A stretch of 14,610 bases of DNA from Candidatus Heimdallarchaeota archaeon (GCA_030614005.1 JAUWKS010000075.1:1-14610); one strand, 5' to 3'. Counted from the first letter of the stretch, positions 792-14,463 are shown. Notes: a model not told the origin generated them from the sequence alone. Made by a program: numbers and translations.

Positions 792-1736
792 TTACTTTTT
801 CTTTCTCCTCTTACGGATATAAAGACTGATTGAACTAACTGTAAGCAATGCTGGAATTGTAATTAGAATTTCGATACCAGCAATTCTTGCATCCCAAAAT
901 AGTTTACCCATTCTATAGCCAACAGCTTCTACATGCTGATGCAGAAAGAGATCAATAATCTTTCCATCTTCTGTTGTTCCATTATAATCCAAACATATAT
1001 GATAGCCATTTAGTACCCCTGTTGTTAAATCATATTCGTATTTCAAATCATAAAAACCAGCAATACACCAACCTTGATCCTCACCATCAGTAGGTACATA
1101 AAAATCCCTCCAATAACTCCATTCGAAAATTCCTTTTGAATCCTCCTTATCAAAAGCTGTAATAAACGTAAAACTACGTGTTTTATATAGCGGATCCGGG
1201 TCCATTGTTCCTCCTACTTCAGCAAGATATTCAAACAGTGGATCAACCACACTTAAGTCGAAAAAGTGTGTGTTAATTATCTTTGGTGTACCTTTATCAA
1301 ATAAGGATTGATCCCAAGAATTATTTAGTTCTGCCATAAGAATAGGCAAAAATAATAAATCAAGAATCGTATAGTTGTTCGAAGTATCTTTAGTCGTAAC
1401 TGTATCTTCTCCGATTGTAATAGTATACTCTATCTCATGACTAACTTCACTTGTTATGTGAACAGCATATTTAGACCCTACAGGATGATTAGTTTCACCA
1501 ATGAAAATACCGGTAGAAGACGTGCTCAAATCTCCATGTTGAACACTCCATTCTGATGTCACTACATCGTATTCATAATCCAATTCGACAATACTAGTAA
1601 AATCTGCTAATGAATTCGTTATATTCAGGAATAATAATATAGAAACTAGTAATAATACTATAATTTTGATTCTCTTCTTCAAGAAATATTCCCCCAAGAA
1701 TTTTTTTCTTACAATAACAAATTCTTCTCTATTCAT
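792..1736 (-). CDS. Secreted, C-terminally membrane-anchored surface protein (resembles the Asgard 'choice-of-anchor S' type); true start probably TTG at 1682
   Basis: Signal peptide KKRIKIIVLLLVSILLFLNITNSLA|D, C-terminal TM plus basic tail IRKRRKKK, motif YEYDLTTGVLNG shared with 1880..2776. Family name is from recollection, not from a search. Confidence 0.7.
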   Translation of the reverse strand: MNREEFVIVRKKFLGEYFLKKRIKIIVLLLVSILLFLNITNSLADFTSIVELDYEYDVVTSEWSVQHGDLSTSSTGIFIGETNHPVGSKYAVHITSEVSHEIEYTITIGEDTVTTKDTSNNYTILDLLFLPILMAELNNSWDQSLFDKGTPKIINTHFFDLSVVDPLFEYLAEVGGTMDPDPLYKTRSFTFITAFDKEDSKGIFEWSYWRDFYVPTDGEDQGWCIAGFYDLKYEYDLTTGVLNGYHICLDYNGTTEDGKIIDLFLHQHVEAVGYRMGKLFWDARIAGIEILITIPALLTVSSISLYIRKRRKKK

Positions 1737-1834: not shown

Positions 1835-2776
1835 ATAAACAATAAAATTGGGAAAATTTTATCACTAGTTCTATTAGGAATGCTAATTCAAACACAATTA
1901 TGTTCAGCAGATACATTTGGTGTCTCTGTTGGAGAAACATTTACTTATGAGTGTATAACTTCAGAACGAACATTAGTTTGGGGATCAAATTCAAGTTTGT
2001 CAGAAGGATATTCACTTGATGACCATCATTTTGCTGAAGGAACGGCAGTGTCAGTTGAAGTTACACATATTGATGACAATGTCTATTATGTTGTTTCTAA
2101 AGATGGTTTTGAAGCTTTTCATAGTTCAGATGCTTTATCACTGTCATTAGCAATACTATTCGAGGAAGGGTCTATCATCTACTCGTTTTACAGTATTATA
2201 AACCATATTGAACAATTGGGATGGAACCAAACGCTATTGGATCAAGGACCTTATTTACTATGTAGAGAATTATTTGTAGAAATTGATTCCACTTCATGGA
2301 GTGACCTTATTGATGTAGTAACTTCAAAAATTGAGCATTACTCCACAGCAATAGTAACATATGACGATTCATTTCTTGGAGAAATTGAAGTACTATATGT
2401 TAATAGTGACTCAACCTTTGCATACGAGTTTCATTATTCAGGCGTATTAAATGTAACGTATACCCCTACCAGTCCTATAAGTCCATGGACAAAATATAGT
2501 GATGATGTAGAGTACTATCAAAGTTTTGTCTATGATAAGACCACAGGTGCATTGCTTGGTATGCATTCATACGGTTCAATGACTGGAACAAGCAACGGAA
2601 CAAACTTTGAATATGCTGTAGATAGTCATATCGAAAAGGAAGGATATGATTTACCAGTAAGTATACTGAGTAATACTAAAGGATTCTCCGGGTACAGCAT
2701 TGCTATTGCTTTTGGAAGTATGACTACATTAGTCATGATTGCTGTTTATGTTAGAAGGAAAAAAGCAACCATTTAA
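1835..2776 (+). CDS. Secreted, C-terminally anchored surface protein, paralog of 792..1736; start extended upstream of ATG 1880
   Basis: Frame is open from 1829 and encodes a full signal peptide (INNKIGKILSLVLLGMLIQTQLCSA|D). C-terminal GFSGY-TM-RRKK; motifs FVYDKTTGALLG and HIEKEGYDLP. Exact start uncertain. Confidence 0.7.
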   Translation: MNNKIGKILSLVLLGMLIQTQLCSADTFGVSVGETFTYECITSERTLVWGSNSSLSEGYSLDDHHFAEGTAVSVEVTHIDDNVYYVVSKDGFEAFHSSDALSLSLAILFEEGSIIYSFYSIINHIEQLGWNQTLLDQGPYLLCRELFVEIDSTSWSDLIDVVTSKIEHYSTAIVTYDDSFLGEIEVLYVNSDSTFAYEFHYSGVLNVTYTPTSPISPWTKYSDDVEYYQSFVYDKTTGALLGMHSYGSMTGTSNGTNFEYAVDSHIEKEGYDLPVSILSNTKGFSGYSIAIAFGSMTTLVMIAVYVRRKKATI

Positions 2777-2814: not shown

Positions 2815-3063
2815 GTCATCTTTTTCTAATTTGAATTACAAACAATAGTTCAAAAGTTGTATAAAAGAGAAATAGAAACTCAATTTTGTGAACTCGCTTT
2901 TGTATTGTTATCTCCGAAGAACAAAACATCTCCTATGGTTGGTTTATTGCTGTGTTCGATGATGAATGATTATTTCATCTCAAAAACGCCGCTTTCTTGC
3001 TTTACTTTCTAAAGACTAATTCAAATTAATCAAGAACAATAAATTAGTTAGTAGAAGAGTTGA

Positions 3064-3426
3064 GTGATTAAGATGAAAATTTTAATAATTATTAATGATG
3101 CCTCATATGGAACCGAGAAAGCATTCAACGCTTTGCGGTTAGCCATGTCTGTGCAGAAAGAGCATAAAGATGTTGAAGTGAATGTTTTTCAGCTAGCGGA
3201 TGCCGTTACTTGTGCAATTCCCAATCAACAAACACCAAATGGGTACTATAATTTAGAGCGAATGTTGAAATCAGTTATTCGGAAAGGTAGAGAAATCAAG
3301 GCTTGTGGTGGATGTCTCAATGCCAGAGGATTAAAAGAAGTTGGGTTGATCGAAGGCATAGAGAGTAGTACTATGAGTCAATTATCACAATGGACGTATG
3401 ATGCTGCTAAAGTCATCACGTTCTGA
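3064..3426 (+). CDS. DsrE/YchN-like sulfur-relay family protein, copy A
   Basis: ASYGTEKAFNALRLA, FxLADAV, CGGCLNARG and QWTYDAAKVITF match the YchN/DsrE (COG1553) pattern. Confidence 0.9.
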   Translation: MIKMKILIIINDASYGTEKAFNALRLAMSVQKEHKDVEVNVFQLADAVTCAIPNQQTPNGYYNLERMLKSVIRKGREIKACGGCLNARGLKEVGLIEGIESSTMSQLSQWTYDAAKVITF

Positions 3427-3473
3427 TAGATAGTTTGTGAAACTAGATAAGAAAAGGAAAGCGAATGTAATAA

Positions 3474-3501
3474 TAGTGGACAATCCCGAATGTGAACCGT
3501 G
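3474..3501 (-). repeat. tRNA-3'-end repeat R1 (degenerate)
   Basis: Minus strand CACGG-TTCACAT-TCGGG-ATTGTCC-ACTA; aligns without gaps to R2-R7. Confidence 0.7.
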
Positions 3502-3562
3502 ATTAGTTAGAGAAGCACAAAATAAAATTCACTTAAAATTAGAGAAAGGAATATATACCAAA

Positions 3563-3594
3563 ACAGACATAGTATACACGAGAACCATGTCTGT
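3563..3594 (+). promoter_or_regulatory. Putative TA operator (8-bp inverted repeat) between TATA-like box and start codon
   Basis: acagacat (3563-3570), 16 nt, atgtctgt (3587-3594); atatata at 3551-3557. Confidence 0.45.
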
Positions 3595-3892
3595 ACTATC
3601 AGTGAGAATAGATAAAGAGCTGGAAGAGAAACTAAAGCTTCTAATGGAAAAACAGAAAATAATTGACAAGTCATCTTTTATTCGAAGATTACTCGATGAA
3701 TCAGTACAAGAAAAACTAATTGACATTTTGTGTAAAGAAGTTAAAAGAAAAAACATAAGTGCGTGGAAAGCCGCAGAACTCGCCCAGATGTCTTTAAGAG
3801 GGATTATGCATGAACTTGCTAAGCGAGATGTAAAAACATATGACGAAGTATCGTTAGAACAAGATTTAGCTTTTGTTGATAGAGAAGGATAA
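3587..3892 (+). CDS. UPF0175-family antitoxin with N-terminal ribbon-helix-helix
   Basis: LSVRIDKELEEKL...RRLL (RHH) followed by ISAWKAAELAQMSLRGIMHELAKRDV and LEQDL; coupled to a DUF3368 gene. Confidence 0.85.
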   Translation: MSVLSVRIDKELEEKLKLLMEKQKIIDKSSFIRRLLDESVQEKLIDILCKEVKRKNISAWKAAELAQMSLRGIMHELAKRDVKTYDEVSLEQDLAFVDREG

Positions 3893-3896
3893 AACA

Positions 3897-4409
3897 ATGA
3901 TAGGGATAACAAACGCTTCACCGTTAATCTATTTGGGAAAATTAGGCATAATAGAACTCCTCCCAAAATTATTCTCAAGAGTAATCACAACTACAACAGT
4001 AAAAGAAGAAGTTTTACAGGTAAAAGCTGCACCTGAATATCCTATACTTACAGAAGTTTTCGAGTCATGGTTAGAAGTAGTGAAAGTCGAAGAAGAGCTT
4101 GTGCAAAAAATAGCTGCTCTACAAATACATAGAGCAGAAGCTGAAGTAATAGCCTTAGGGAGAGAGCTGCTAGCAAAAGAAGAAGAAATAATAGTAATAA
4201 TAGATGATCTTCTAGCAAGAGAAATAGCTGTTAGTCTAGGATTGACTGTAACAGGAACAATTGGCATTATACTAGAAGCATTAAAAGAGAAAATTGTCTC
4301 AAAAAAAGCAGCGAAAATGTTAGTAGAACAATTAATAACAACGACAAATTTTAGATTGTCAGCAAAAGTTTATGCAAAAACATTGAAAGAAATAGAAACA
4401 AGAGGATAA
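3897..4409 (+). CDS. DUF3368 PIN-domain (VapC-like) toxin
   Basis: ITNASPLIYLGK, IHRAEAEVIALG, IIDDLLAR and TGTIGII are DUF3368 signatures. ATG 3897 lies 4 nt after the antitoxin stop. Confidence 0.85.
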   Translation: MIGITNASPLIYLGKLGIIELLPKLFSRVITTTTVKEEVLQVKAAPEYPILTEVFESWLEVVKVEEELVQKIAALQIHRAEAEVIALGRELLAKEEEIIVIIDDLLAREIAVSLGLTVTGTIGIILEALKEKIVSKKAAKMLVEQLITTTNFRLSAKVYAKTLKEIETRG

Positions 4410-4503
4410 AAATTATCAGTTAAGACTTTTAGAGATAAGATGGTTTGATTGAATTTCTTATTTTCATTTTGATTATAGTAATCATCAATTGATCAGTCCG
4501 AAA

Positions 4504-4704
4504 CTAAACCAGTTTTTCTGTGGGAATGGGATCATTAGATAACTTTCTTAATTTTTCTTGGAAAGCTTCAACCTCGGATTGAAAATCACTTAAGAATGTA
4601 GCTCTTAGTAAAACTAACCTCCCAGATTCTATTTAAAGAAATAATCTGGATCCTGGTTTGATGTTGAGTTTCTCACGTATTTCTTTAGGAATTAAAATTC
4701 CACC
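4504..4704 (-). pseudogene. AbrB/MazE-family antitoxin pseudogene (paralog of 8513..8743)
   Basis: GILIPKEIREKLNIKPGSRLFL*IESGRLVLLRATFLSDFQSEVEAFQEKLRKLSNDPIPTEKLV*. In-frame TAA at 4633-4635; 42-nt deletion removes the start codon. Confidence 0.9.
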
Positions 4705-4820
4705 GAGAGTACATAGTGGGAACGATGTTATGAATTTAATGTTTGGTTGACAAAGTGAAAATTTTAGAAGTAAAGCAAGAAAAAATGATTCAACGAATAA
4801 AATGAAAGAGTAAGAGAAAA

Positions 4821-4853
4821 TGATGGGCAATCCCAGATGTGAACCAGGGACTT
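4821..4853 (-). repeat. tRNA-3'-end repeat R2
   Basis: Minus strand AAGTC-CCTGG-TTCACAT-CTGGG-ATTGCCC-ATCA. Confidence 0.9.
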
Positions 4854-4907
4854 TTGAAAAAAGGATAAACTCTAAGAGGGAAAGATAGCCATCTGTATAA
4901 AACTCCC

Positions 4908-5201
4908 TTAAAGTGAATAGATTTCTTTATCTTCCTCTCGAGGGAATTGAGCATCCTTGTCATAATGAGTGTCCTTGTATTGCTCAAAATCAGCGATAAT
5001 TTCCTGAGCTAATTTCTCTGTTAGGCGAGGAACTGAAGAAGCAATAGTAAGAAAATCTTCAAAGTTACTAGTAGAGTATTGTATACAGAGGTCAATTGTC
5101 TCTTGTAAAGTAATTTTGCGACCTAACTGCAGGATCAATCTTGCATGAAGATCATCTAGAGCCTTCTTATCAGTGATCTTAATAACAGCCATAAGCATCA
5201 A
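4908..5201 (-). CDS. Orphan VapB-like antitoxin candidate (probable start ATG 5192)
   Basis: Small protein with helical N-terminus and acidic C-terminus in a TA array, followed by an SD and a 6-codon stub MAIFPS*. Function inferred from context. Confidence 0.55.
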   Translation of the reverse strand: MMLMAVIKITDKKALDDLHARLILQLGRKITLQETIDLCIQYSTSNFEDFLTIASSVPRLTEKLAQEIIADFEQYKDTHYDKDAQFPREEDKEIYSL

Positions 5202-5299
5202 TAATATACTATGCTACCTCGGCATAAAAGTCTACTGAAAAGTAAAGGACAAATGAAAATCGATGGAATAAAACTAATGAATGCGAGGAGAAGAAGAAG

Positions 5300-5329
5300 A
5301 ACGCTAGTGTCAAGATAGAGGTATTTCAG
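5300..5329 (-). pseudogene. Truncated VapC N-terminal stub
   Basis: (C)TG AAA TAC CTC TAT CTT GAC ACT AGC GTT = xKYLYLDTSV, overlapping the antitoxin stop TGA; the PIN-like sequence ends there. Confidence 0.65.
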
Positions 5330-5607
5330 CGCTTACGATCTTCTGCAACAAGTTTAACTATTGAAGAATCAAACAGTTTTTTCCCAACAGCTTCTAATTG
5401 TTTTTCGGTTAAACTTGGAGGAGTTCCCAATAGCTCAAGACTCGGAGAAGTTAATCGCTTTTCAGTGAAATCTTTAAGCTCCTTTGAAAGAAGAGCACGT
5501 ATAGTCTCACTTAGGTTGGCATAATACCCGAGGGCAATTAATTGAACTAATAGCTCTAAGTCTTCTTTTGCTATTCGAAAATTAACTACTTCATCAACCA
5601 TAAGCAA
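5326..5607 (-). CDS. Ribbon-helix-helix (CopG/VapB-like) antitoxin, toxin partner truncated
   Basis: VVNFRIAKEDLELLVQLIALGYYANLSETIRALL (RHH); C-terminal IVKLVAEDRKR resembles archaeal VapB tails. Confidence 0.75.
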   Translation of the reverse strand: MLMVDEVVNFRIAKEDLELLVQLIALGYYANLSETIRALLSKELKDFTEKRLTSPSLELLGTPPSLTEKQLEAVGKKLFDSSIVKLVAEDRKR

Positions 5608-5623
5608 AAAACATCCTATATGC

Positions 5624-5652
5624 AGATATAGATACAGATTTGTACTATATCT
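5624..5652 (-). promoter_or_regulatory. Putative operator palindrome upstream of the RHH gene
   Basis: agatatag-a-taca-gatt-tgta-ctatatct. Confidence 0.45.
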
Positions 5653-5684
5653 TTCCAGAAAGAAAAAAATGGTGAGGAAAGTAA

Positions 5685-5718
5685 TAGTGGTAAATCCAGG
5701 ATTCGAACCAGAGACTTC
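5685..5718 (-). repeat. tRNA-3'-end repeat R3
   Basis: Minus strand GAAGTC-TCTGG-TTCGAAT-CCTGG-ATTTACC-ACTA. Confidence 0.85.
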
Positions 5719-5811
5719 TAATAAAAGATAAGAAGAGTATTTAAAATTAAAAATTACTAATAGAATAGAAGGTTACAACAGGAAAAAAAAGTAGATTTAT
5801 CTGGTGAAGTA

Positions 5812-5892
5812 ATGTCAATAGGAAAAGTAGGCTCTAAAGGTGAATTCAAATTAAGAAAGAACAATAAATTGGTTAATAGAAGAGCTGGGTGA
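5812..5892 (+). pseudogene. 5' stub of AbrB-family antitoxin fused to the DsrE leader (26-codon ORF)
   Basis: MSIGKVGSKGEF matches MSIGKVGSKGEL of 13090..13323, and the leader agatttatctggtgaa is shared. The sequence then switches to the DsrE upstream region; TGA overlaps the DsrE GTG. Confidence 0.8.
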
Positions 5893-6251
5893 TTAAGATG
5901 AAAGTGTTAATAATTATTAATGATGCCTCATACGGAACCGAGAAAGCATTCAACGCTATGCGTTTAGCCATGACTTTACAAAAAGAACACAAAGATGTTG
6001 AAGCAAATGTTTTTCTGCTTGCTGATGCCGTTACTTGTGCAATTCCCAATCAGCAAACACCTGATGGGTACTATAATTTAGAGCGAATGTTAAAATCGGT
6101 TATTCGGAAAGGTGGAGAAATCAAGGCTTGTGGTGGATGTCTCAATGCCAGAGGATTAAAAGAAGTTGGGTTGATCGAAGGCATAGAGAGTAGTACTATG
6201 AGTCAATTAGCACAATGGACGTATGATGCTGCTAAAGTCATCACGTTCTGA
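5889..6251 (+). CDS. DsrE/YchN-like sulfur-relay family protein, copy B
   Basis: 111/120 aa identical to copy A by manual count. Confidence 0.9.
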   Translation: MIKMKVLIIINDASYGTEKAFNAMRLAMTLQKEHKDVEANVFLLADAVTCAIPNQQTPDGYYNLERMLKSVIRKGGEIKACGGCLNARGLKEVGLIEGIESSTMSQLAQWTYDAAKVITF

Positions 6252-6292
6252 TGAATAAATCCTACATGGTTATTATTAGGTTTAATTAATAA

Positions 6293-7039
6293 GTGACTAG
6301 TGTTTTACTAACAAGAGAAACATTGTTAAAAACTAGAATGCAAGAGCAATTTGTACGTAAACCATTACAAGTAAGAAAGGATGTTAAAAAACATCGGAAG
6401 GAAATGCTCATTCTATTTCTGGCAGCTTTTATCTATTCTATCGTCTATGGCATCTTTGAATATACTGTAATGTATACAAATCCGGGCTATGTTAGAAATG
6501 GCATCATTTCCCCTTACGTAAATTGGACAATTATGTACGTAAGTTTAGTTATACTAATGACAATTGTTACTCGAGGGAAAATCGAGTTAATAATTTTGGG
6601 AGTGTTTTTCTTCCTAGTGTTTGAAGATTTGGTGTATCACATATGCTATGGAATAGATATACAAGCCTATCCATTTCCAGTATATGATTGGTGGGATGAA
6701 TATCTGGCGAGCTTTCGCGTGCTGGGTCGGTTGGGGCAAGCGGTGCCATTTTGGCCATATGCACCACTCTATTATCTGCCAGGTTTCTTGATTCTACTAC
6801 TACAATTTAGTATAGGCATAATAAATGTTAAAGGATTCAGAATAGTAAACTGGATAATCGAACCATTCATAGTAGCAATCATTGTCGGGTTGCTTTGGAA
6901 TAATGACGTTTTTGCTTTAATTTCCTTAATAGTCATTCCAATAATCGCTTATAGCTATATCATTACCTTGATAGTGCTCTATAAAAAAGGACTGATAGAA
7001 ATATCAGAAAACTCTGCAGAAGAAATTAAAGAAGAATAG
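6293..7039 (+). CDS. Uncharacterised multi-pass membrane protein
   Basis: About 6-7 hydrophobic segments; start codon uncertain; stop lies 13 nt before R4. Confidence 0.7.
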   Translation: MTSVLLTRETLLKTRMQEQFVRKPLQVRKDVKKHRKEMLILFLAAFIYSIVYGIFEYTVMYTNPGYVRNGIISPYVNWTIMYVSLVILMTIVTRGKIELIILGVFFFLVFEDLVYHICYGIDIQAYPFPVYDWWDEYLASFRVLGRLGQAVPFWPYAPLYYLPGFLILLLQFSIGIINVKGFRIVNWIIEPFIVAIIVGLLWNNDVFALISLIVIPIIAYSYIITLIVLYKKGLIEISENSAEEIKEE

Positions 7040-7052
7040 AAGGGAGATAAAA

Positions 7053-7080
7053 TGGTGGGCGATCCCAGATTTGAACTGGG
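7053..7080 (-). repeat. tRNA-3'-end repeat R4
   Basis: Minus strand CCCAG-TTCAAAT-CTGGG-ATCGCCC-ACCA: perfect T-stem, canonical T-loop, CCA. Confidence 0.95.
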
Positions 7081-7100
7081 AATGCTTTTTTCAATATTGA

Positions 7101-7580
7101 TTAAATTGATAACAATTTACCAATACTTGTTTTGAAATTTTGAGAAGAGGGATTAAAAACAGGGATGGATTTGAGATTGGCTTTAAAATCAGAATCAAAA
7201 GTAATGAAAGCACTAGCTTTGTATTTTAGAGCAGTAGTGGCATGTAAGGCATCAGCAGCATATAGATTGGATGCAAAGATATGTTCTCGAGAAGTAATAA
7301 TAAGAGCATGAGAAACGGGAACAAGTAAAAGAATCTTCTTCTTAACCATCTCTCCAACATCACTCAGAAAAAAGTCAATAGCTATTTCAGCATTCTTTTT
7401 TGAGATAGTCCCTAAATTTACTTGTTTCTTGAAGGCTCGAAACATCTCAATAAGACACCATTCACTAGTAATAGCAGGAAAGTCAGGATGAACTTGAGAA
7501 AATAACCAATCAACTATCGAAGCATCTTCAATAGGACAATAAGCATGATAGAAGACATTGGTGTCAAGATAAAGAGCCAT
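7101..7580 (-). CDS. vapC: VapC PIN-domain toxin
   Basis: YLDTNVF, TSEWCLIE, YAADALH and FITFD: the conserved acidic PIN residues are present. Confidence 0.9.
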   Translation of the reverse strand: MALYLDTNVFYHAYCPIEDASIVDWLFSQVHPDFPAITSEWCLIEMFRAFKKQVNLGTISKKNAEIAIDFFLSDVGEMVKKKILLLVPVSHALIITSREHIFASNLYAADALHATTALKYKASAFITFDSDFKANLKSIPVFNPSSQNFKTSIGKLLSI

Positions 7581-7816
7581 TATTCCTCTTGCCTCACAGA
7601 ACGAATCGCTTCAACACCAGATTGAAAAGGTTTCTGTTGCTGTTTCCTAAGATACTCACGTAATTCAGCTCGAGAAGAAATACCAAGCTTTTCTTGAACA
7701 TAAGAGAAAATTCCACCACGAACTGCTTCACTACGAGACTTTATCACGCCACGTTCAATAAGCTGATCTAACCATTCAAGAAGTTCTTCGTCTAATGAAA
7801 CGGATATTGTAGTCAA
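7580..7816 (-). CDS. vapB: CopG/RHH-family antitoxin (VapB-like)
   Basis: ISVSLDEELLEWLDQL...SRSEAVR; C-terminal GVEAIRSVRQEE; stop overlaps the vapC start. Confidence 0.85.
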   Translation of the reverse strand: MTTISVSLDEELLEWLDQLIERGVIKSRSEAVRGGIFSYVQEKLGISSRAELREYLRKQQQKPFQSGVEAIRSVRQEE

Positions 7817-7841
7817 AATACCAACTCAACTAATCACTAAA

Positions 7842-7877
7842 ATAGTACTGTTTTTGTACTATAAAAACAATAGTACT
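7842..7877 (-). promoter_or_regulatory. Triple-box RHH operator overlapping the TATA box
   Basis: atagtac-tgttttt-gtactat-aaaaaca-atagtac: alternating 7-bp boxes at a 14-nt period; TTTTTATA on the minus strand at 7860-7867. Confidence 0.6.
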
Positions 7878-7903
7878 TGTAAGTGGAGAAAAATAGAGAG
7901 AAA

Positions 7904-7940
7904 TGGTGGGCGAGGCGAAATTTGAATCCGCGACTTCCAA
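7904..7940 (-). repeat. tRNA-3'-end repeat R5 (different T-stem)
   Basis: Minus strand TTGGAAGTC-GCGGA-TTCAAAT-TTCGC-CTCGCCC-ACCA. Confidence 0.9.
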
Positions 7941-8011
7941 TTAGATAAGAAAGTTTGATCAAGTTTCTTAGGAAAGATGATTACAACCAATTGCTGTATT
8001 GTATTCCTCAT

Positions 8012-8497
8012 TTAACGTTTTAATGAAGCGAATTTTGATTCATCAAATTCCTTTCCTTTGTTTAATATCAAAGGTGGATCAAACACAGGGTCAATTCGAA
8101 GTAAACTTGTGATTCTTAACAAATTTTTATCATTAGTGACAATCGTTTCAACATCTTTAGATAGCATACTCGCTAATATTAGGCAATCTCGTCCACCAAC
8201 TCCTTTACTTCGATTTGACTTTAAAAGCTCTAGCGCTATTAACATAATATCAGTATCGACAGGCACAAAGGTGATGTTTTCCTGGGTAACCCATTTTAAA
8301 ATTAACTTTTCTGTGGAGATTTTGTCTAATTTGGGAACCGCATAGAGATTATGGGAGACTTCAAGGGGGATTATCGTACTAAGCATAATTTGTTCATTTG
8401 CCAAGATTCCTTCGAACCATTTCTGAACACTGGTATTTGCTATGGCATTGGGATCAAAATAATAAATCCAGATTTGACTGTCAATTGCAATCATCAC
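8012..8497 (-). CDS. vapC: VapC PIN-domain toxin
   Basis: IAIDSQIWIY, STIIPLEV, GGRDCLILA, IVTNDKNL. Confidence 0.9.
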   Translation of the reverse strand: MMIAIDSQIWIYYFDPNAIANTSVQKWFEGILANEQIMLSTIIPLEVSHNLYAVPKLDKISTEKLILKWVTQENITFVPVDTDIMLIALELLKSNRSKGVGGRDCLILASMLSKDVETIVTNDKNLLRITSLLRIDPVFDPPLILNKGKEFDESKFASLKR

Positions 8498-8512
8498 GAG
8501 TTTCCTCCAAAC

Positions 8513-8743
8513 CTAAAACAATTTTTCTGTTGGAATGGGATCAGTAGTTAACTTTCTTAGTTTTTCTTGAAAAGATTCAAGCTCAGATTGAAGGTCGCTT
8601 AAGGATGTAGCTTGAAGTAAAACTAACCGCCCAGCTTCTACTTTAAGAAATAACTTGGAGCCTGGTTTGATGTTTAGTCTTTTACGAATTTCTTTAGGAA
8701 TTAAAATTCTACCTTTTGTATCAACAATTATATCGGAACCCAT
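8513..8743 (-). CDS. AbrB/MazE/SpoVT-family antitoxin
   Basis: VDTKGRILIPKEIRKRLNIKPGSKL swapped-hairpin motif, directly upstream of vapC. Confidence 0.9.
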   Translation of the reverse strand: MGSDIIVDTKGRILIPKEIRKRLNIKPGSKLFLKVEAGRLVLLQATSLSDLQSELESFQEKLRKLTTDPIPTEKLF

Positions 8744-8750
8744 AAGAAGT

Positions 8751-8770
8751 CCACCAAGTGTACTGGGTGG
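8751..8770 (-). promoter_or_regulatory. Putative AbrB operator palindrome
   Basis: CCACC-a-AGT-gt-ACT-g-GGTGG between a TATA-like box (about 8779-8786) and ATG 8743; decayed in the pseudo-copy at 4700-4719. Confidence 0.5.
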
Positions 8771-8879
8771 GAATGAGAATATAAATTTAACTGATAAGTT
8801 AGTGGATTGAGAATTTCAGAAATTAAATTAAAAAAAATCTTGAGATAATAGAAGAGTGGAAAGAGTAGAGAATGAAAAA

Positions 8880-8913
8880 TGGTGGGCGATCCCAGATTTG
8901 AACCGGGGATTTC
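8880..8913 (-). repeat. tRNA-3'-end repeat R6
   Basis: Minus strand GAAATC-CCCGG-TTCAAAT-CTGGG-ATCGCCC-ACCA. Confidence 0.95.
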
Positions 8914-8926
8914 TTTTTTGTAAGGT

Positions 8927-9541
8927 TCATTGATTTTTTTGCATTTTTTTCAGTAGAAATTCTTTTACTTCGTTTTGTTCATACTGAAAATGAGTTGTTA
9001 CTTCCCCTAGTATTTTCAACAATTTATTGAATTTTGATTCTATGACTTTTCTCTCTATTTCTGCATTTGTTATTTTCTTTTTATTTTTCACTTTCTTCCA
9101 ATATTTCAGCAGGGCTACTGTTGTGTATGCATTTTCATTTACTATTGTTATTTTTGACATTCCATATGTTATTACTCTGAATCTTGCATATGGCAGGTAT
9201 TGTATGCATACTGTTATCTTGTCTTTTGATTTGAAAATAATCCTTTCCTCTTGCAAGTTTACTTTGGCGCTTCTAATGAACTGTCTTCTTATCATATTGT
9301 GATATCCTTTCAGCAGTTCCCTAACTGTTTTTTTTGTTTTTGATACTGTGAAATAGATTGTAAAATCATAACCATCTATGAACATTGATGATTTCTTATC
9401 AGTAACTATTCTTATTTCCGCGCTGCTATTCCATTGCCTCATTATTTTTATTATTGTATGTACAGCTGGTTGATATATTGGCTTTTCTTGTACCAGCAGG
9501 TTTGCATATAGTCTTAATTCAGCTTCCTCGCTTATCAGCAT
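8927..9541 (-). CDS. Hypothetical basic protein downstream of the feo genes
   Basis: 204-aa Lys-rich ORF; no recognised family; stop lies 13 nt from R6. Confidence 0.6.
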   Translation of the reverse strand: MLISEEAELRLYANLLVQEKPIYQPAVHTIIKIMRQWNSSAEIRIVTDKKSSMFIDGYDFTIYFTVSKTKKTVRELLKGYHNMIRRQFIRSAKVNLQEERIIFKSKDKITVCIQYLPYARFRVITYGMSKITIVNENAYTTVALLKYWKKVKNKKKITNAEIERKVIESKFNKLLKILGEVTTHFQYEQNEVKEFLLKKMQKNQ

Positions 9542-9617: not shown

Positions 9618-9890
9618 TTACTCATCTTTTTTCTCTTTCTTTACCAGCAAATATTTTGGTCGATATTTTGATGAGTTACAGCTTTTCATTGAGCATCCAT
9701 TACAACTTCTAGAGCTACAATTCGCTTGTTTTATTTCTACTGCTGCTATTGTTTTTATGTATCCTTTTTGTTCAAGTTGTTTAATTATCATTTCGACTAC
9801 TTTTTCATCCATAGCTAATTTTCTGGCTATCATTGATGTTTTTAGCAGTCCACCATTTTCTAGATAGAACAGTACTTTTGACATAGACAT
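9618..9890 (-). CDS. feoC: FeoC-like winged-helix protein with C-terminal Cys cluster
   Basis: HTH segment IARKLAMDEKVVEMIIKQLEQKGYI followed by CSSRSCNGCSMKSC; lies in the feo operon. Confidence 0.75.
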   Translation of the reverse strand: MSMSKVLFYLENGGLLKTSMIARKLAMDEKVVEMIIKQLEQKGYIKTIAAVEIKQANCSSRSCNGCSMKSCNSSKYRPKYLLVKKEKKDE

Positions 9891-9916
9891 TTTTCTTCCT
9901 CCGAAAAAAAAGAGTA

Positions 9917-10423
9917 TTAGGAAGAAGCTGCTTGAGCTTTTTCCTTTCGCACATCTCGAAACTTGATGAATAATAGCAAGAATATTGGTAATGATATTAT
10001 TCCTAGTAGTATTGGGAAGTATAGTGATGAGAATTCTGTGAAGTCTGGTGCTACTGCTTCTGCTGCTGCATCCACTAGCACAGCGATTATATCTGCCACT
10101 ACCACTAATACATATAGTAAACCAAATACTACTCCTACTCCTGAACCGATTAGGAGAAATGAATTTCCTTCAGGATTTTTCCCTCTGAAATATAATATGG
10201 CTGACCATAGGATAATTAATCCGATTATCACCAGAGCAATTCCTGTCATGAATTCACCTGTCCAACCTAAGAGACTGGTGTTGGCAAATAGAGGCCATTC
10301 TGCTGTTGCTTCGAAAGTTGTCATAAATTGCAGGACTCCAAATGTCATAAAGATCAAAGATAGGACTATTGAGTAGGTTATTCGTAGCCATAATGGAATA
10401 TTTTTAGTTTCATTGATTGTCAT
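9917..10423 (-). CDS. Uncharacterised 4-TM membrane protein inside the feo operon
   Basis: Four hydrophobic segments; SD GAGGTGA; lies between feoB and feoC. Confidence 0.75.
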   Translation of the reverse strand: MTINETKNIPLWLRITYSIVLSLIFMTFGVLQFMTTFEATAEWPLFANTSLLGWTGEFMTGIALVIIGLIILWSAILYFRGKNPEGNSFLLIGSGVGVVFGLLYVLVVVADIIAVLVDAAAEAVAPDFTEFSSLYFPILLGIISLPIFLLLFIKFRDVRKEKAQAASS

Positions 10424-10436
10424 TCATCTCACCTCA

Positions 10437-12467
10437 TCAGATAGCAGCCGCTTGTAAACCGAAACCAACTATAGCTCCAGTTATGTAATAGGCTATTATT
10501 GCTGCAACATAAGCTATTACCAATGTCAGACCCATATTGAAGAACATCCACTTCCAGCTGTTTGTCTCTTGTTTTATTACTCCAAGTGCAGCAACACATG
10601 GGACATAGAGCAAGGTAAACATCATAAATGCCATTCCTGCAGCCGGTCCTATTGTCGCGGCTATTTGTGTTTGAAGTGCTGGATTATCTTCCGCTAAGTC
10701 ATCACCTATTCCAAATGTCGTTCCTAGTGCTCCTACCACTATTTCTTTTGCAATTAATCCGAAGAGCAATGCTGCCCCGAATTGCCAGACTAGTCTTGAT
10801 CCATCGGTCTTCATCCACCAGAAGAGGTAGCTAATAGCAGTTCCAACTTCTTCCATAATGCTGATACCTCCGAATTGAACGTTGCTAAATAGCCAGATCG
10901 CTGCTACAGATATCATGATGACTGAGGTGGCTTTTTTGAGGAACATTTTCCCTCTGTCCCAAGTTTTTCGGGACACGCCTTTTGCTGTTGGAGATGTATA
11001 TGGTTGAAGTTCCATAATAAATGGAGTTCCTTCTCCTCTAAAGAGAGTATTTCGTAATAGAAGTGCAACTAAGATTGCTACCACTATTCCTGTTAGATAG
11101 AGAACTAAAGTTATTGTACTTGGTGAACCTAAAGTAGAGGCAAATGCTCCACCTATGAGAATATACACTGGTAATCTTGCACCGCATGACATGAAGCCAT
11201 TGACCATAATGGTTGTCATTCGATCGTTTTCATTTTTGATTGCTCTTGTAGCCATTATTGCTGGTACATTACAACCAAAGCCAAGTAACATCGGAATAAA
11301 TGATTGACCATTAAGACCAATGCGATTCATCATTTTGTCCATGATAAAGGCAACTCGAGAGAGATATCCCGAATCTTCTAAAAACGCTATTGCTACGAAC
11401 AATAGCAGGATGTTTGGTAAGAAGACTATTACTGATCCAACACCATCAACTAGTGTACCTACAACGAAATTCATGAAGGCACCATCATGAATCAGGAAAA
11501 GCAAATCACCAAGATAACCAAAGAGCATTTCAACTAATCCTATGAAAGGATCGCCCACTGTAAATGTGAATTGAAATACACCCCACATAATTGCGATGAA
11601 TAGAGGAATCCCCCAAATCTTATGAGTGAATACTTCATCCAACATATCTGAAAGATTCCACTCATCAGATTCTGTTTTCGTCTGAACATTTCTGATATAG
11701 TTGCTTATTGCTGAATATCTTGCATTAGAAATAGCTACCATACCGTCGCCATCTAGTAAATCATCAGTTACTTCATCTATTTTCTTTGAAAAAGCACGCT
11801 TTGATATCCCTAAGGAATTTGCTATTGCCCATGTAGATTCATCATTCTCTAATAGAGAGATTGCCAACCAACTTGCAGGATATTTGGTTCCCACGTATGA
11901 TTTAATCTCAGCTTCAACCTTCGAGACTGCATCGCCAACTTTTCCATCATAAGTTAATGGACCGACTGCTAATCCTGCAGCCAATACATCGCAAATTGAT
12001 TCTTTTAAGATCTCAATTCCATCGTTTTTTGTAGCAATTGTTGGAATTACTGGAACACCCAAAACCTTGGACAATTGATCAGTATCAATCGTTACACCTT
12101 TGCTTTCAGCAAGATCAACCATGTTTACAACGACTAAAACCTTCATGCCCAATTCAAGCAATTGTGTTGTTAGATAGAGATTTCTTTCGAGATTTGAACC
12201 ATCTATAATATCAATAACCAAATCTGGTTTTTCTTTTAAGATGTAGTCCAGAGCAATTCGTTCATCAATAGAATACGGTGAAAGAGAATATACACCCGGA
12301 AGATCAATAACTTGTATCTCTTCCTGTTCTTCACCAGTCATCATTCCTTCTTTTTTCTCAACTGTACATCCCGGAAAATTAGCAACCGTCTGTCGTAAAC
12401 CTGTAAGAGCATTAAAAATAACACTCTTTCCGACGTTTGGATTACCAATTAATGCAATGCTTGTCAT
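10437..12467 (-). CDS. feoB: Ferrous iron transporter B
   Basis: G1 GNPNVGKS, NFPGCTVEKKEG, DLPGVYSL, NMVD, plus the TM region LGFGCNVPAIMATR, SCGARLP, LYVPCVA. Confidence 0.98.
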   Translation of the reverse strand: MTSIALIGNPNVGKSVIFNALTGLRQTVANFPGCTVEKKEGMMTGEEQEEIQVIDLPGVYSLSPYSIDERIALDYILKEKPDLVIDIIDGSNLERNLYLTTQLLELGMKVLVVVNMVDLAESKGVTIDTDQLSKVLGVPVIPTIATKNDGIEILKESICDVLAAGLAVGPLTYDGKVGDAVSKVEAEIKSYVGTKYPASWLAISLLENDESTWAIANSLGISKRAFSKKIDEVTDDLLDGDGMVAISNARYSAISNYIRNVQTKTESDEWNLSDMLDEVFTHKIWGIPLFIAIMWGVFQFTFTVGDPFIGLVEMLFGYLGDLLFLIHDGAFMNFVVGTLVDGVGSVIVFLPNILLLFVAIAFLEDSGYLSRVAFIMDKMMNRIGLNGQSFIPMLLGFGCNVPAIMATRAIKNENDRMTTIMVNGFMSCGARLPVYILIGGAFASTLGSPSTITLVLYLTGIVVAILVALLLRNTLFRGEGTPFIMELQPYTSPTAKGVSRKTWDRGKMFLKKATSVIMISVAAIWLFSNVQFGGISIMEEVGTAISYLFWWMKTDGSRLVWQFGAALLFGLIAKEIVVGALGTTFGIGDDLAEDNPALQTQIAATIGPAAGMAFMMFTLLYVPCVAALGVIKQETNSWKWMFFNMGLTLVIAYVAAIIAYYITGAIVGFGLQAAAI

Positions 12468-12709
12468 GGTTCAATTACCTCCACCAAGATTAAGCTTGCA
12501 CTTTTTTTACGGAATGAAAGTTGATACCCTTTAATCAAAAAGTCAATCGGATCACCCAAAGGAGCAACACGCACTACTTCAATTGTCTCGCCAGGTATTA
12601 CACCCATCTCGAGAATAGCTTTCTTTGCAGTGTTTTCTCCTTTGAATTTCTTGATTGTGGCTTTTTGACCAACTTTTAATTTATCCAGAGTTATTTCCAT
12701 AGTAATCAA
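12464..12709 (-). CDS. feoA: Ferrous iron transport protein A (start TTG 12709 or ATG 12700)
   Basis: LEMGVIPGETIEVVRVAPLGDPI...LSFRK; stop overlaps the feoB start (ATGA). Confidence 0.95.
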   Translation of the reverse strand: MITMEITLDKLKVGQKATIKKFKGENTAKKAILEMGVIPGETIEVVRVAPLGDPIDFLIKGYQLSFRKKSASLILVEVIEP

Positions 12710-12883: not shown

Positions 12884-12998
12884 ATAAAGATTCCTATAGA
12901 AAAGAATTTTGAGGGAAAGAGCAAAAATTGTATTCGTTTAATATAAAAAAGAAGGAATCTAAATATAAATAGAAAGACAAAAACAACTTAGAATGAAA

Positions 12999-13035
12999 TG
13001 GTGGGTGATCCCGGATGTGAACCAGGGACTTCCAA
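12999..13035 (-). repeat. tRNA-3'-end repeat R7
   Basis: Minus strand TTGGAAGTC-CCTGG-TTCACAT-CCGGG-ATCACCC-ACCA. Confidence 0.95.
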
Positions 13036-13089
13036 AGATTTTATGAAATGTTTTTATACCAGAAAAAAGAAGATTTATCTGGTGAAAAA

Positions 13090-13323
13090 ATGTCAATCGG
13101 CAAAGTAGGCTCAAAAGGGGAATTATTCCCACCAAAGAAAATTAGAGAAAAAATTGGGCTAAAGGAAGGACAAAGGGTTTTGTACAGAATAGTGCAAGGA
13201 AGATTAGTGGTAGAAAAAATTCCTTCAGCTGAAGAATTATTGGAAAAACCGGCAAAAGTCACAATTACCTTTGAAGAATTCAAAAAACATAGAAGGAAAT
13301 TAAGCAAGGATGCAGAGAAATGA
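13090..13323 (+). CDS. AbrB/MazE/SpoVT-family antitoxin
   Basis: IGKVGSKGELFPPKKIREKIGLKEG; SD GGTGA at 13081 supports ATG 13090; ATGA overlap with vapC. Confidence 0.9.
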   Translation: MSIGKVGSKGELFPPKKIREKIGLKEGQRVLYRIVQGRLVVEKIPSAEELLEKPAKVTITFEEFKKHRRKLSKDAEK

Positions 13324-13778
13324 AGCTGTTATTGGATAGCTCTTTCTTTATGCCTTTTTTAGCTGTAGATATTGTACAATGCCCAAGAAAGGCAATACTA
13401 GAATTAATGACAAAAGAAGAAATCATCAGATCAGAATTGGTAATTTTTGAAGTGTCTGCAAAAGGAAGCAAGTTAGTCAATAATGGGGAAATATCAATTG
13501 AAGAATTAACACAGGGAATAACAGCAATACAATACCTAGAAAAAATGGAAACTATTCCCATACATTATACAGAAATACAAGCATTAGCAAGCGAACTGCG
13601 AAAAAGTCACAGTAATCTTATTGATTGTTTAATGGTTGCAACAGCAGTTTATTACGCAGAGGGAATGCTAACACTAGATAAAGAACTAAAGAAAAAAGTG
13701 CATGAAGAGTGGAATGATATAATAGAGAGCATAAACAAAGAATTCAAGATGATTTTATGGGGAGAATATAAAAAATAA
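13320..13778 (+). CDS. vapC: VapC PIN-domain toxin
   Basis: LLLDSSFF, SELVIFEV, NLIDCLMVATA, LTLDKEL. Confidence 0.85.
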   Translation: MKLLLDSSFFMPFLAVDIVQCPRKAILELMTKEEIIRSELVIFEVSAKGSKLVNNGEISIEELTQGITAIQYLEKMETIPIHYTEIQALASELRKSHSNLIDCLMVATAVYYAEGMLTLDKELKKKVHEEWNDIIESINKEFKMILWGEYKK

Positions 13779-14163: not shown

Positions 14164-14463
14164 CTCATTTACTAAATTGTTATAGCTAAACTTTTTTTAT
14201 AATTGATTAGAGAGATAGCTAAAAGTATTCATGTTTTACTAAAAACTATTATGATATTGTATCTGAAGATTATAACATTTTTATTGGTTTTACTATTTGA
14301 ACTTGTTTAGAACAAATAGTACTTGTTTTTGCCGAAATGGACTTCTAGACCTTAAAGAGGAAGTGATTTTTGTAAAGCAAAATATAACAGAAAAAGAACA
14401 TAAGAGAATAGATTTTAGTTTCAAAACAAACATACTTCATATCCCATATACCTCTATCATTTC

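Follow-up and report, generated by a model that had tools for sequence, protein, structure and literature searches.

In tycheposon islands of Prochlorococcus, older elements are displaced inward by successive integrations, and the partial tRNAs left by these events are scattered through the island (Hackl et al., bioRxiv 10.1101/2020.12.28.424599). Bacterial CIMEs, integrase-less units flanked by att sites, are described as decayed ICEs or IMEs and are found alongside other elements in tandem (Guedon et al. 2017, PMC5704250). For Heimdallarchaeum, a paper on mobile elements reports integration at tRNA genes; the terms "cassette", "toxin-antitoxin" and "direct repeat" are absent from it (PMC8813620).

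The DNA analyzed here (the window, 14,610 nucleotides) is the entire contig C55 of a Candidatus Heimdallarchaeota metagenome-assembled genome (G000; 3.62 Mb, 126 contigs, 33.5% GC). Heimdallarchaeota belong to the Asgard archaea, which are the closest archaeal relatives of eukaryotes. Seven direct repeats on the minus strand, R1-R7, are located at 3474, 4821, 5685, 7053, 7904, 8880, and 12999, and the array that they form contains the following genes:

3008-3432 and 5833-6257: two copies of a DsrE gene, in the region of the repeat array
3587-4409: UPF0175 gene and DUF3368/PIN-like gene, between repeats
7101-7816: RHH and PIN genes, between repeats
8012-8743: AbrB/MazE and PIN genes, between repeats
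9618-12709: FeoA, FeoB, and accessory genes, between repeats
13048-13778: second AbrB-like and PIN pair, between repeats

As in CIME accretion, direct repeats of a tRNA 3′ end lie between units that lack an integrase of their own, decayed units persist, and an intact tRNA stands at the head of the array, here in relatives. Unlike CIMEs, the units are miniature (~0.85-1.4 kb, many of them a single toxin-antitoxin pair with hardly any further DNA), at least eight of them follow one another, they reside in an Asgard archaeon, and neither a helper element nor an integrase was found with the array. The array also resembles tycheposon islands in being tRNA-adjacent, in containing partial tRNAs, and in carrying small cargo cassettes that vary between close relatives; tycheposons, however, are cyanobacterial rather than heimdallarchaeial and carry tyrosine recombinases and replication modules, none of which were seen here, and the cargo of the Heimdall array consists mostly of toxin-antitoxin pairs. 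With sedentary chromosomal integrons and CALINs it shares long arrays of ~1-kb integrase-less cassettes, short repeats between them, decayed cassettes, and frequent toxin-antitoxin cassettes, which probably stabilize the array. In contrast to these, its repeats are tRNA 3′ ends and not attC palindromes, its cassettes come with promoters of their own and face either direction, and no IntI, attI, or Pc was found. The general mechanism is known; the unusual features of this array are how small and numerous its units are and the lack of an integrase. Together with sister genomes, the limits of homology described below provide nucleotide-level support for a ~1-kb cassette, bounded by tRNA 3′ ends, as the unit of gain, loss, and reshuffling at tRNA-Val.

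The repeats derive from the 3′ end of tRNA-Val(GAC)

ARAGORN detected no tRNA and Rfam no match over the whole window. Each of R1-R7 consists of a T-arm, the 3′ acceptor strand, a discriminator, and CCA, and the repeats correspond to the terminal ~35 nt of the relatives' tRNA-Val(GAC), with identities of up to 96.7% over 30 nt. This value was obtained for R6 and the tRNA-Val of G006, whose 3′ end reads GGAAGTC-CCCGG-TTCAAAT-CCGGG-ATCGCCC-A-CCA. Same-genus relatives possess intact tRNA-Val(GAC) genes, with an intron in some and none in others, and behind these genes lies a pyrimidine-rich trailer like the tract behind each repeat (purine-rich on the plus strand). Among the tRNA genes of G000, most contain introns and all encode CCA; an intact tRNA-Val(GAC) is present neither on C55 nor in the rest of the G000 assembly. 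An intact tRNA-Val heads cassettes in G008, G011, G005, and the metagenome contig L022, and in G010 the array lies 10.5 kb away from the tRNA.

The tRNA-Val gene is allelic in the genus. G006 and G004 have a CCCGG/CCGGG T-stem and an ATCGCCC acceptor strand; in G008 and G005 the T-stem is GGGGA/TCCCC or GGGAG/CTCCC and the acceptor strand CTCGCCC. By its sequence, R5 represents the G008/G005-type allele and the other repeats the G006/G004 type, which suggests that the cassette next to R5 came from a lineage with that allele. Allelic tRNA-Val ends in the repeats, R5 versus the others, would in this way record the source lineage of each cassette. We also considered R5 as a tRNA-Pro-type site, as found in a second array of this genome (below), and set this assignment aside, the G008/G005-type allele being the better fit. 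T-stems vary between repeats and pairing is always kept. The variants match natural tRNA-Val alleles, and their compensatory appearance is therefore inherited from functional tRNAs, so that selection acting on the repeats need not be invoked.

A Rad51/RadA-like gene is the conserved tRNA-proximal neighbor of the array in G010 (L014 4368-5477) and G001 (L006 1510-2004). In G010, the 10.5-kb block from tRNA-Val to the first fragment encodes Rad51/RadA-like, wHTH, PD-(D/E)XK nuclease, LAGLIDADG-like, and NERD-domain proteins, and may itself be an integrated element. In the window, a 24-nt direct repeat (2781-2804 and 14199-14222, 88%) encloses nearly the entire array and may be due to chance; the extended HSP, 2781-2829 versus 14199-14242, has E = 0.034. 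The region 656-2992 contains open reading frames at 792-1736 (minus strand) and 1880-2776 (plus strand) that have no Pfam match and are missing from G010, where only 40 nt separate the FAD-oxidoreductase gene from DsrE. No tRNA-like repeats accompany this indel.

Limits and lesions of the unit at 4412-4853

The sequence-only reading had paired the segment that ends at R2 with the abrB-vapC cassette between R5 and R6, which comprises the following:

7904-7936, minus strand: R5, a tRNA-Val 3′ end of the other allele (T-stem GCGGA/TTCGC, acceptor strand CTCGCCC), nearest to the tRNA-Val of G008 and G005
7937-8879, minus strand: intact abrB-vapC cassette, with flank (7937-8011), vapC (8012-8497, PIN), abrB (8513-8743), and promoter plus trailer (8744-8879)
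8880-8913, minus strand: R6, a tRNA-Val(GAC) 3′-end copy, the repeat that is 96.7% identical (30 nt) to the intact G006 tRNA-Val

The genes at 8012-8743 show the predicted layout of a type II VapBC system, in which a PIN toxin gene directly follows the gene for a small DNA-binding antitoxin. As in VapBC pairs with an AbrB/SpoVT-type antitoxin, the antitoxin gene precedes the toxin gene by a short spacer (15 nt), and the encoded proteins match PF04014 (E = 1.2e-9, AbrB) and PF01850 (E = 9.4e-13, VapC). The promoter is overlapped by a palindrome, CCACC(C/A)AGT..ACT(T/G)GGTGG, a putative operator that can be read directly in the intact copy.

The segment under study contains the following features:

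4412-4428, minus strand: remnant of an eighth att site of tRNA-Val type, of which only the variable-loop end GACTT (4424-4428) and possibly the preceding ATCAG are recognizable
4429-4460, minus strand: flank downstream of the lost vapC, homologous to 7937-7970
4461-4485, minus strand: vapC stub with ATG (4485-4483) and ~4 codons, then a scar in place of ~510 nt; aligns to 8494-8480 at an offset of 4009
4504-4704, minus strand: abrB pseudogene (AbrB/MazE-type VapB antitoxin), in-frame codons 11-76 and stop, interrupted by a nonsense TAA (4635-4633)
4698-4705, minus strand: junction of a 42-nt deletion; 8708-8749 of the intact copy is missing between GGTGGA and GGTAGA
4699-4745, minus strand: remnant of the abrB promoter and putative palindromic operator, 31/41 to 8750-8790
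4746-4820, minus strand: purine-rich tract (in the tRNA sense, the pyrimidine-rich trailer behind CCA), weakly like 8796-8875
4821-4853, minus strand: R2, a tRNA-Val(GAC) 3′-end copy from variable loop to CCA, here ending in ATCA

Homology had been claimed to span the whole cassette and to stop at the repeat positions, and our alignments bear this out. The core (4475-4704 versus 8484-8713) aligns without gaps at 82% identity, and the gapped HSP, 4475-4853 versus 8484-8912, has E = 2e-59. Within it, the abrB pseudogene is 84.8% identical to intact abrB (8513-8713) at the nucleotide level and 77.6% at the amino acid level, in frame. On the promoter side, the score of 4699-4739 against 8750-8790 was attained by 0 of 2000 shuffles. 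On the other side, the left flank 4433-4460 matches 7943-7970 at 23 of 28 positions, a score attained by 1 of 2000 dinucleotide shuffles in collinear space; the score is 18 with the R5 flank and 8-10 with the remaining six repeat flanks. Taken alone in a whole-window BLAST, this flank has E = 0.66 and would not stand. Beyond either edge, where extended homology would have contradicted the claim, scores are at chance level (4856-4955 versus 8914-9013 on the right; 4324-4423 versus 7800-7899 on the left).

The proposed resemblance of the purine tracts leading into R2 and R6 fared less well. Its score ranks first among 21 tract pairs (19 versus ≤15) and is nonetheless marginal, being attained by 68 of 2000 shuffles, and R2 is not nearer to R6 than to R7 (core score 23 against R6, 25 against R7); the tract and the R2 core are therefore not specifically R6-like. 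We looked for a hairpin or terminator in the conserved left flank and found none that is significant (z = -0.4 and -0.1).

Each lesion named in the sequence-only reading is present. About 510 nt of vapC are lost. The 42-nt deletion, between GGTGGA and GGTAGA on the coding strand, took the abrB ATG (8743-8741 in the intact copy), the first 10 codons, and some of the leader, and the premature stop arose by a change of AAA to TAA. At 4461-4704 neither gene of a VapBC pair is intact: the toxin is reduced to ~5 codons, and the antitoxin has no start and carries the TAA. From these alignments, 4424-4853 reads as a degraded relative of the intact abrB-vapC cassette, a pseudogenized VapBC unit. Toxin loss followed by antitoxin erosion is a course of decay that it shares with VapBC systems; it differs from them in lacking any functional gene. 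By itself it is an ordinary pseudogenized toxin-antitoxin pair. Contigs from public sequencing runs of two studies cover it without differences (X1 record 3, 3355-6144; X3 record 19, 4244-4765), and the decayed cassette is therefore a stable part of the population.

An eroded eighth repeat had been placed near 4424. A site at this position is supported by two relatives: in G001, a full tRNA-Val-type repeat directly follows the orthologue of window position 4413 (L006 1425-1465), and in L022 an intact tRNA-Val(GAC) adjoins the orthologue of 4412. These place it between the stop codon at 4409 and GACTT at 4424-4428. Base-by-base erosion is not what happened to it. To the left of GACTT, only 8 of 28 nucleotides match any repeat, which is chance level and rules out a point-mutated repeat, and in alignment with G001 the window lacks ~30 nt of the site (CCA, acceptor strand, and T-arm). 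It was truncated by deletion.

The claim of direct copying from the intact cassette did not hold. The decayed and intact abrB genes differ by dS 0.42 and dN 0.10 (dN/dS 0.24; excess of synonymous changes, Fisher p = 0.0013), versus a dS of 0.02 between intact abrB and its G010 orthologue. A maximum-likelihood tree of 228 nt of abrB groups the Heimdall-family copies in a single supported clade (95/92). Its internal branching is an unresolved fork of the decayed copy, the second G010 copy, the G011 copy, and the intact copy paired with G010 copy 1. The decayed copy is thus a lineage of its own in the tree, and on these distances would be an old paralogue or a separately acquired member of the family rather than a recent daughter of 7937-8879. 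Given its dS and dN/dS, it diverged mostly as a working gene under purifying selection.

The second abrB copy of G010 is 77-81% identical to both window copies, and its vapC is truncated too, at another point; this copy (L012 11361-11784, contig C26) retains abrB with a TTG start, and vapC is cut after ~17 codons. The G011 copy (L013 5973-6200) has an in-frame stop in abrB, and homology in vapC stops at window position 8270. In this abrB-vapC family, toxin loss seems to be recurrent. Promethearchaeota VapBC homologues (L016 and L017, ~70% amino acid identity) have no tRNA-like fragments within 3 kb. A 21-nt motif shared by 4565-4585, 7608-7628, and 8574-8594 was attributed to chance: at the protein level, no significant similarity links the RHH antitoxin to the AbrB antitoxin or one PIN toxin to the other.

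Cassette movement between related genomes

The sequence-only reading had held that the unit copied or moved is the repeat-bounded cassette, and related genomes agree with this: they contain the same units in other contexts, with breaks at the repeats. Units with equal boundaries (RHH-PIN, UPF0175-PIN, and abrB-vapC) occur in different settings among G010, G008, G001, G011, and L022. In G010, the RHH-PIN unit (window 7019-7926, 92%) lies directly behind the R7 cassette (12947-13778, 89%) on contig C13, and the abrB-vapC and Feo units are not between them. The G010 abrB-vapC unit (window 7933-8841, 91.5%) is found in a different neighborhood, on contig C26, without intact flanking repeats. In G008, the RHH-PIN unit (window 7049-7938, 90%) stands directly behind an intact tRNA-Val, with the tRNA in the place of R5, and in G011 a 71% identical relative of abrB-vapC, degraded as well, likewise directly follows an intact tRNA-Val. 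The UPF0175-PIN unit has a repeat on either side in G001 (window 3447-4413, 74%); in L022 (window 4412-3546, 70%) it begins 12 nt past the intact tRNA-Val and is followed by tRNA-Ala(GGC). When homology blocks of at least 150 nt between the window array and the relatives' loci were counted, 12 of 28 endpoints lay within 60 nt of a repeat versus 9.8% expected (p = 2e-4), a figure that is descriptive because the relatives are not independent.

Some rearrangements ignore the repeats. The DsrE duplicate (92% over 425 nt) ends away from them. A 62-nt fragment at 5785-5846, 89% identical to 13063-13124 and covering the leader plus codons 1-12 of the gene for the second AbrB-like antitoxin, follows R3 and is ended by the DsrE duplicate. 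We considered this fragment as a second decayed repeat-to-repeat unit and rejected the idea: its flank toward R3 is unlike the R7 flank (1209 of 2000 shuffles attain the score), and repeat-to-repeat homology is therefore not general in the array. Together, the DsrE duplicate and the abrB fragment indicate that ordinary homologous recombination also shapes the island. The intact cassette is a mosaic relative to its G010 orthologue, with 95-100% identity over 8140-8819 and 55-68% over 7940-8019, so recombination within cassettes happens too.

G010 has a single DsrE, adjoining the FAD-oxidoreductase gene. In run X2, one contig connects 3289 with 6115 through 95 nt of identical sequence; it represents either a population variant without 3290-6114, which includes the decayed cassette, or an assembly collapse. 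In X1, we weighed a back-joint from 7899 to 7051 with AAAGAAAAT, accompanied by doubled RHH-PIN depth, as a sign of an excised circle or of tandem duplication. The joint is identical to the junction found in G010, RHH-PIN then a Val-type repeat, and most likely reflects a co-occurring variant or a second copy. An X9 joint from 5630 to 8874, with a loose end before 8877, suggests a break at the CCA end of R6; it occurs in low-depth contigs of a relative and was set aside as evidence. Depth is low at the contig joints in general.

Proposed integration at tRNA-Val and competing explanations

We favor, with a probability of roughly 75%, a reading of these sequences in which the island was built as small integrase-less cassettes inserted one after another, by site-specific recombination, at tRNA-Val, and in which the toxin was later lost and the antitoxin decayed. 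Each integration into the 3′ half of tRNA-Val(GAC) would leave a copy of its ~35-nt 3′ end, from variable loop to CCA, with the pyrimidine-rich trailer. As in classical integration into a tRNA 3′ half, which the layout fits, the gene would receive a fresh 3′ end and trailer from the incoming element, and its former 3′ end would remain as a fragment. Repeated events would push older units away from the tRNA, and the outcome would be att-like repeats bounding compact units such as toxin-antitoxin pairs and the Feo operon. The segment 4412-4853 would be one such unit, of the same abrB-vapC (VapBC) family as 7937-8879. In its decay, the PIN toxin gene would have been deleted (~510 nt), the orphan antitoxin would have lost its start through the 42-nt microhomology deletion and gained a nonsense codon, and a deletion of ~30 nt would have taken most of the left att site. 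An antitoxin cannot go while its toxin is active; by this general logic of toxin-antitoxin systems, the toxin was probably lost first.

The recombinase would be a tyrosine integrase acting in trans, and the cassettes may still be mobile. No PF00589 integrase was found in the window, in the second G000 array on contig C8, or in the flanks of the G010 arrays examined. G000 has a single PF00589 match, located elsewhere on contig C58, and tyrosine recombinases occur elsewhere in genomes of the genus. The att sequence had 0 matches in a viral contig collection. Besides the missing integrase, points that weigh against this reading are the lack of an intact tRNA-Val in the G000 assembly, the 10.5-kb distance in G010, the G010 abrB-vapC unit without intact flanking repeats, the duplications that disregard the repeats, and the R2 core and purine tract with no specific likeness to R6. 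The second G000 array, behind tRNA-Pro(TGG), speaks in its favor.

It is unlikely that homologous recombination or segmental duplication alone made the second abrB-vapC copy and shuffles the island, with the repeats serving as handy patches of homology and hence drawing endpoints near them. Such recombination could account for the DsrE duplicate, which starts and ends away from repeats, for the X2 joint if it arose between the DsrE copies, and for the mosaic of the intact cassette, and it accords with the lack of an integrase. However, repeats of ~35 nt that are 60-90% alike are a poor substrate for homologous recombination, and the endpoints of homology are enriched at them. Moreover, the cassettes that stand directly behind an intact tRNA-Val in several relatives each have a complete, self-consistent tRNA 3′ end, which is a signature of att integration.

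An integron-like system, in which a structure-specific recombinase would read the T-arm hairpin as IntI reads folded attC and would capture and reorder cassettes at a fixed platform, appears quite improbable. The size of the cassettes, their richness in toxin-antitoxin genes and lack of integrases, T-stems that differ and always pair, and arrays at more than one tRNA in G000 are all features that it would accommodate. Yet the pairing T-stem variants are natural tRNA-Val alleles of sister species (G008/G005 versus G006/G004), for which inheritance from functional tRNAs suffices, and the cassettes, which occur in either orientation, have promoters of their own. Neither the window nor the related arrays showed an IntI-like gene, an attI, or a common promoter, and the repeats are not imperfect palindromes of attC type, their sole hairpin being the T-arm.

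We give very little credence to the idea that the flank matches are chance in AT-rich DNA and true homology is confined to the abrB coding segment, e.g., as a stray gene fragment: the window-wide E value of the left flank and the marginal purine tract would suit it, but the shuffle results for left flank and promoter, the specificity of the left flank for R5 among seven real flanks, and the att site confirmed at the left boundary by G001 and L022 argue against it.

Beyond serial integration at tRNA-Val, it is possible, and we suggest only tentatively, that Heimdallarchaeia keep tRNA-anchored arrays of miniature integrase-less cassettes as a platform for gene capture and exchange, analogous to integrons. 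A recombinase supplied in trans would move single cassettes between species, each cassette would carry a tRNA 3′-end copy as its recombination site, and the decayed abrB-vapC unit would be a fossil of this traffic. If the cassettes are mobilized in trans, they would give the archaea closest to eukaryotes a compact system of gene exchange, one that is tractable for finding the recombinase.

Repeated tRNA 3′ ends also occur at other places in G000. The second array, at C8:35898-40736 (L001 5899-10737), starts with an intact, intron-bearing tRNA-Pro(TGG) that is followed by five 3′-end fragments spaced ~0.3-2.1 kb apart; these bound a pair of genes for AAA_21 (AbiEii-like ATPase) and RloB as well as small open reading frames without a Pfam match. 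At C110:34604-54679, a tRNA-Ala(TGC) has two exact 28-nt copies of its 3′ end 16.4 and 20 kb downstream, which look like the marks of larger, recently integrated elements. The 3′ end of tRNA-Arg(TCG) on C7 is repeated in inverted orientation 6 kb away, and a tRNA-Leu-like 3′ end is present at C63:53783.
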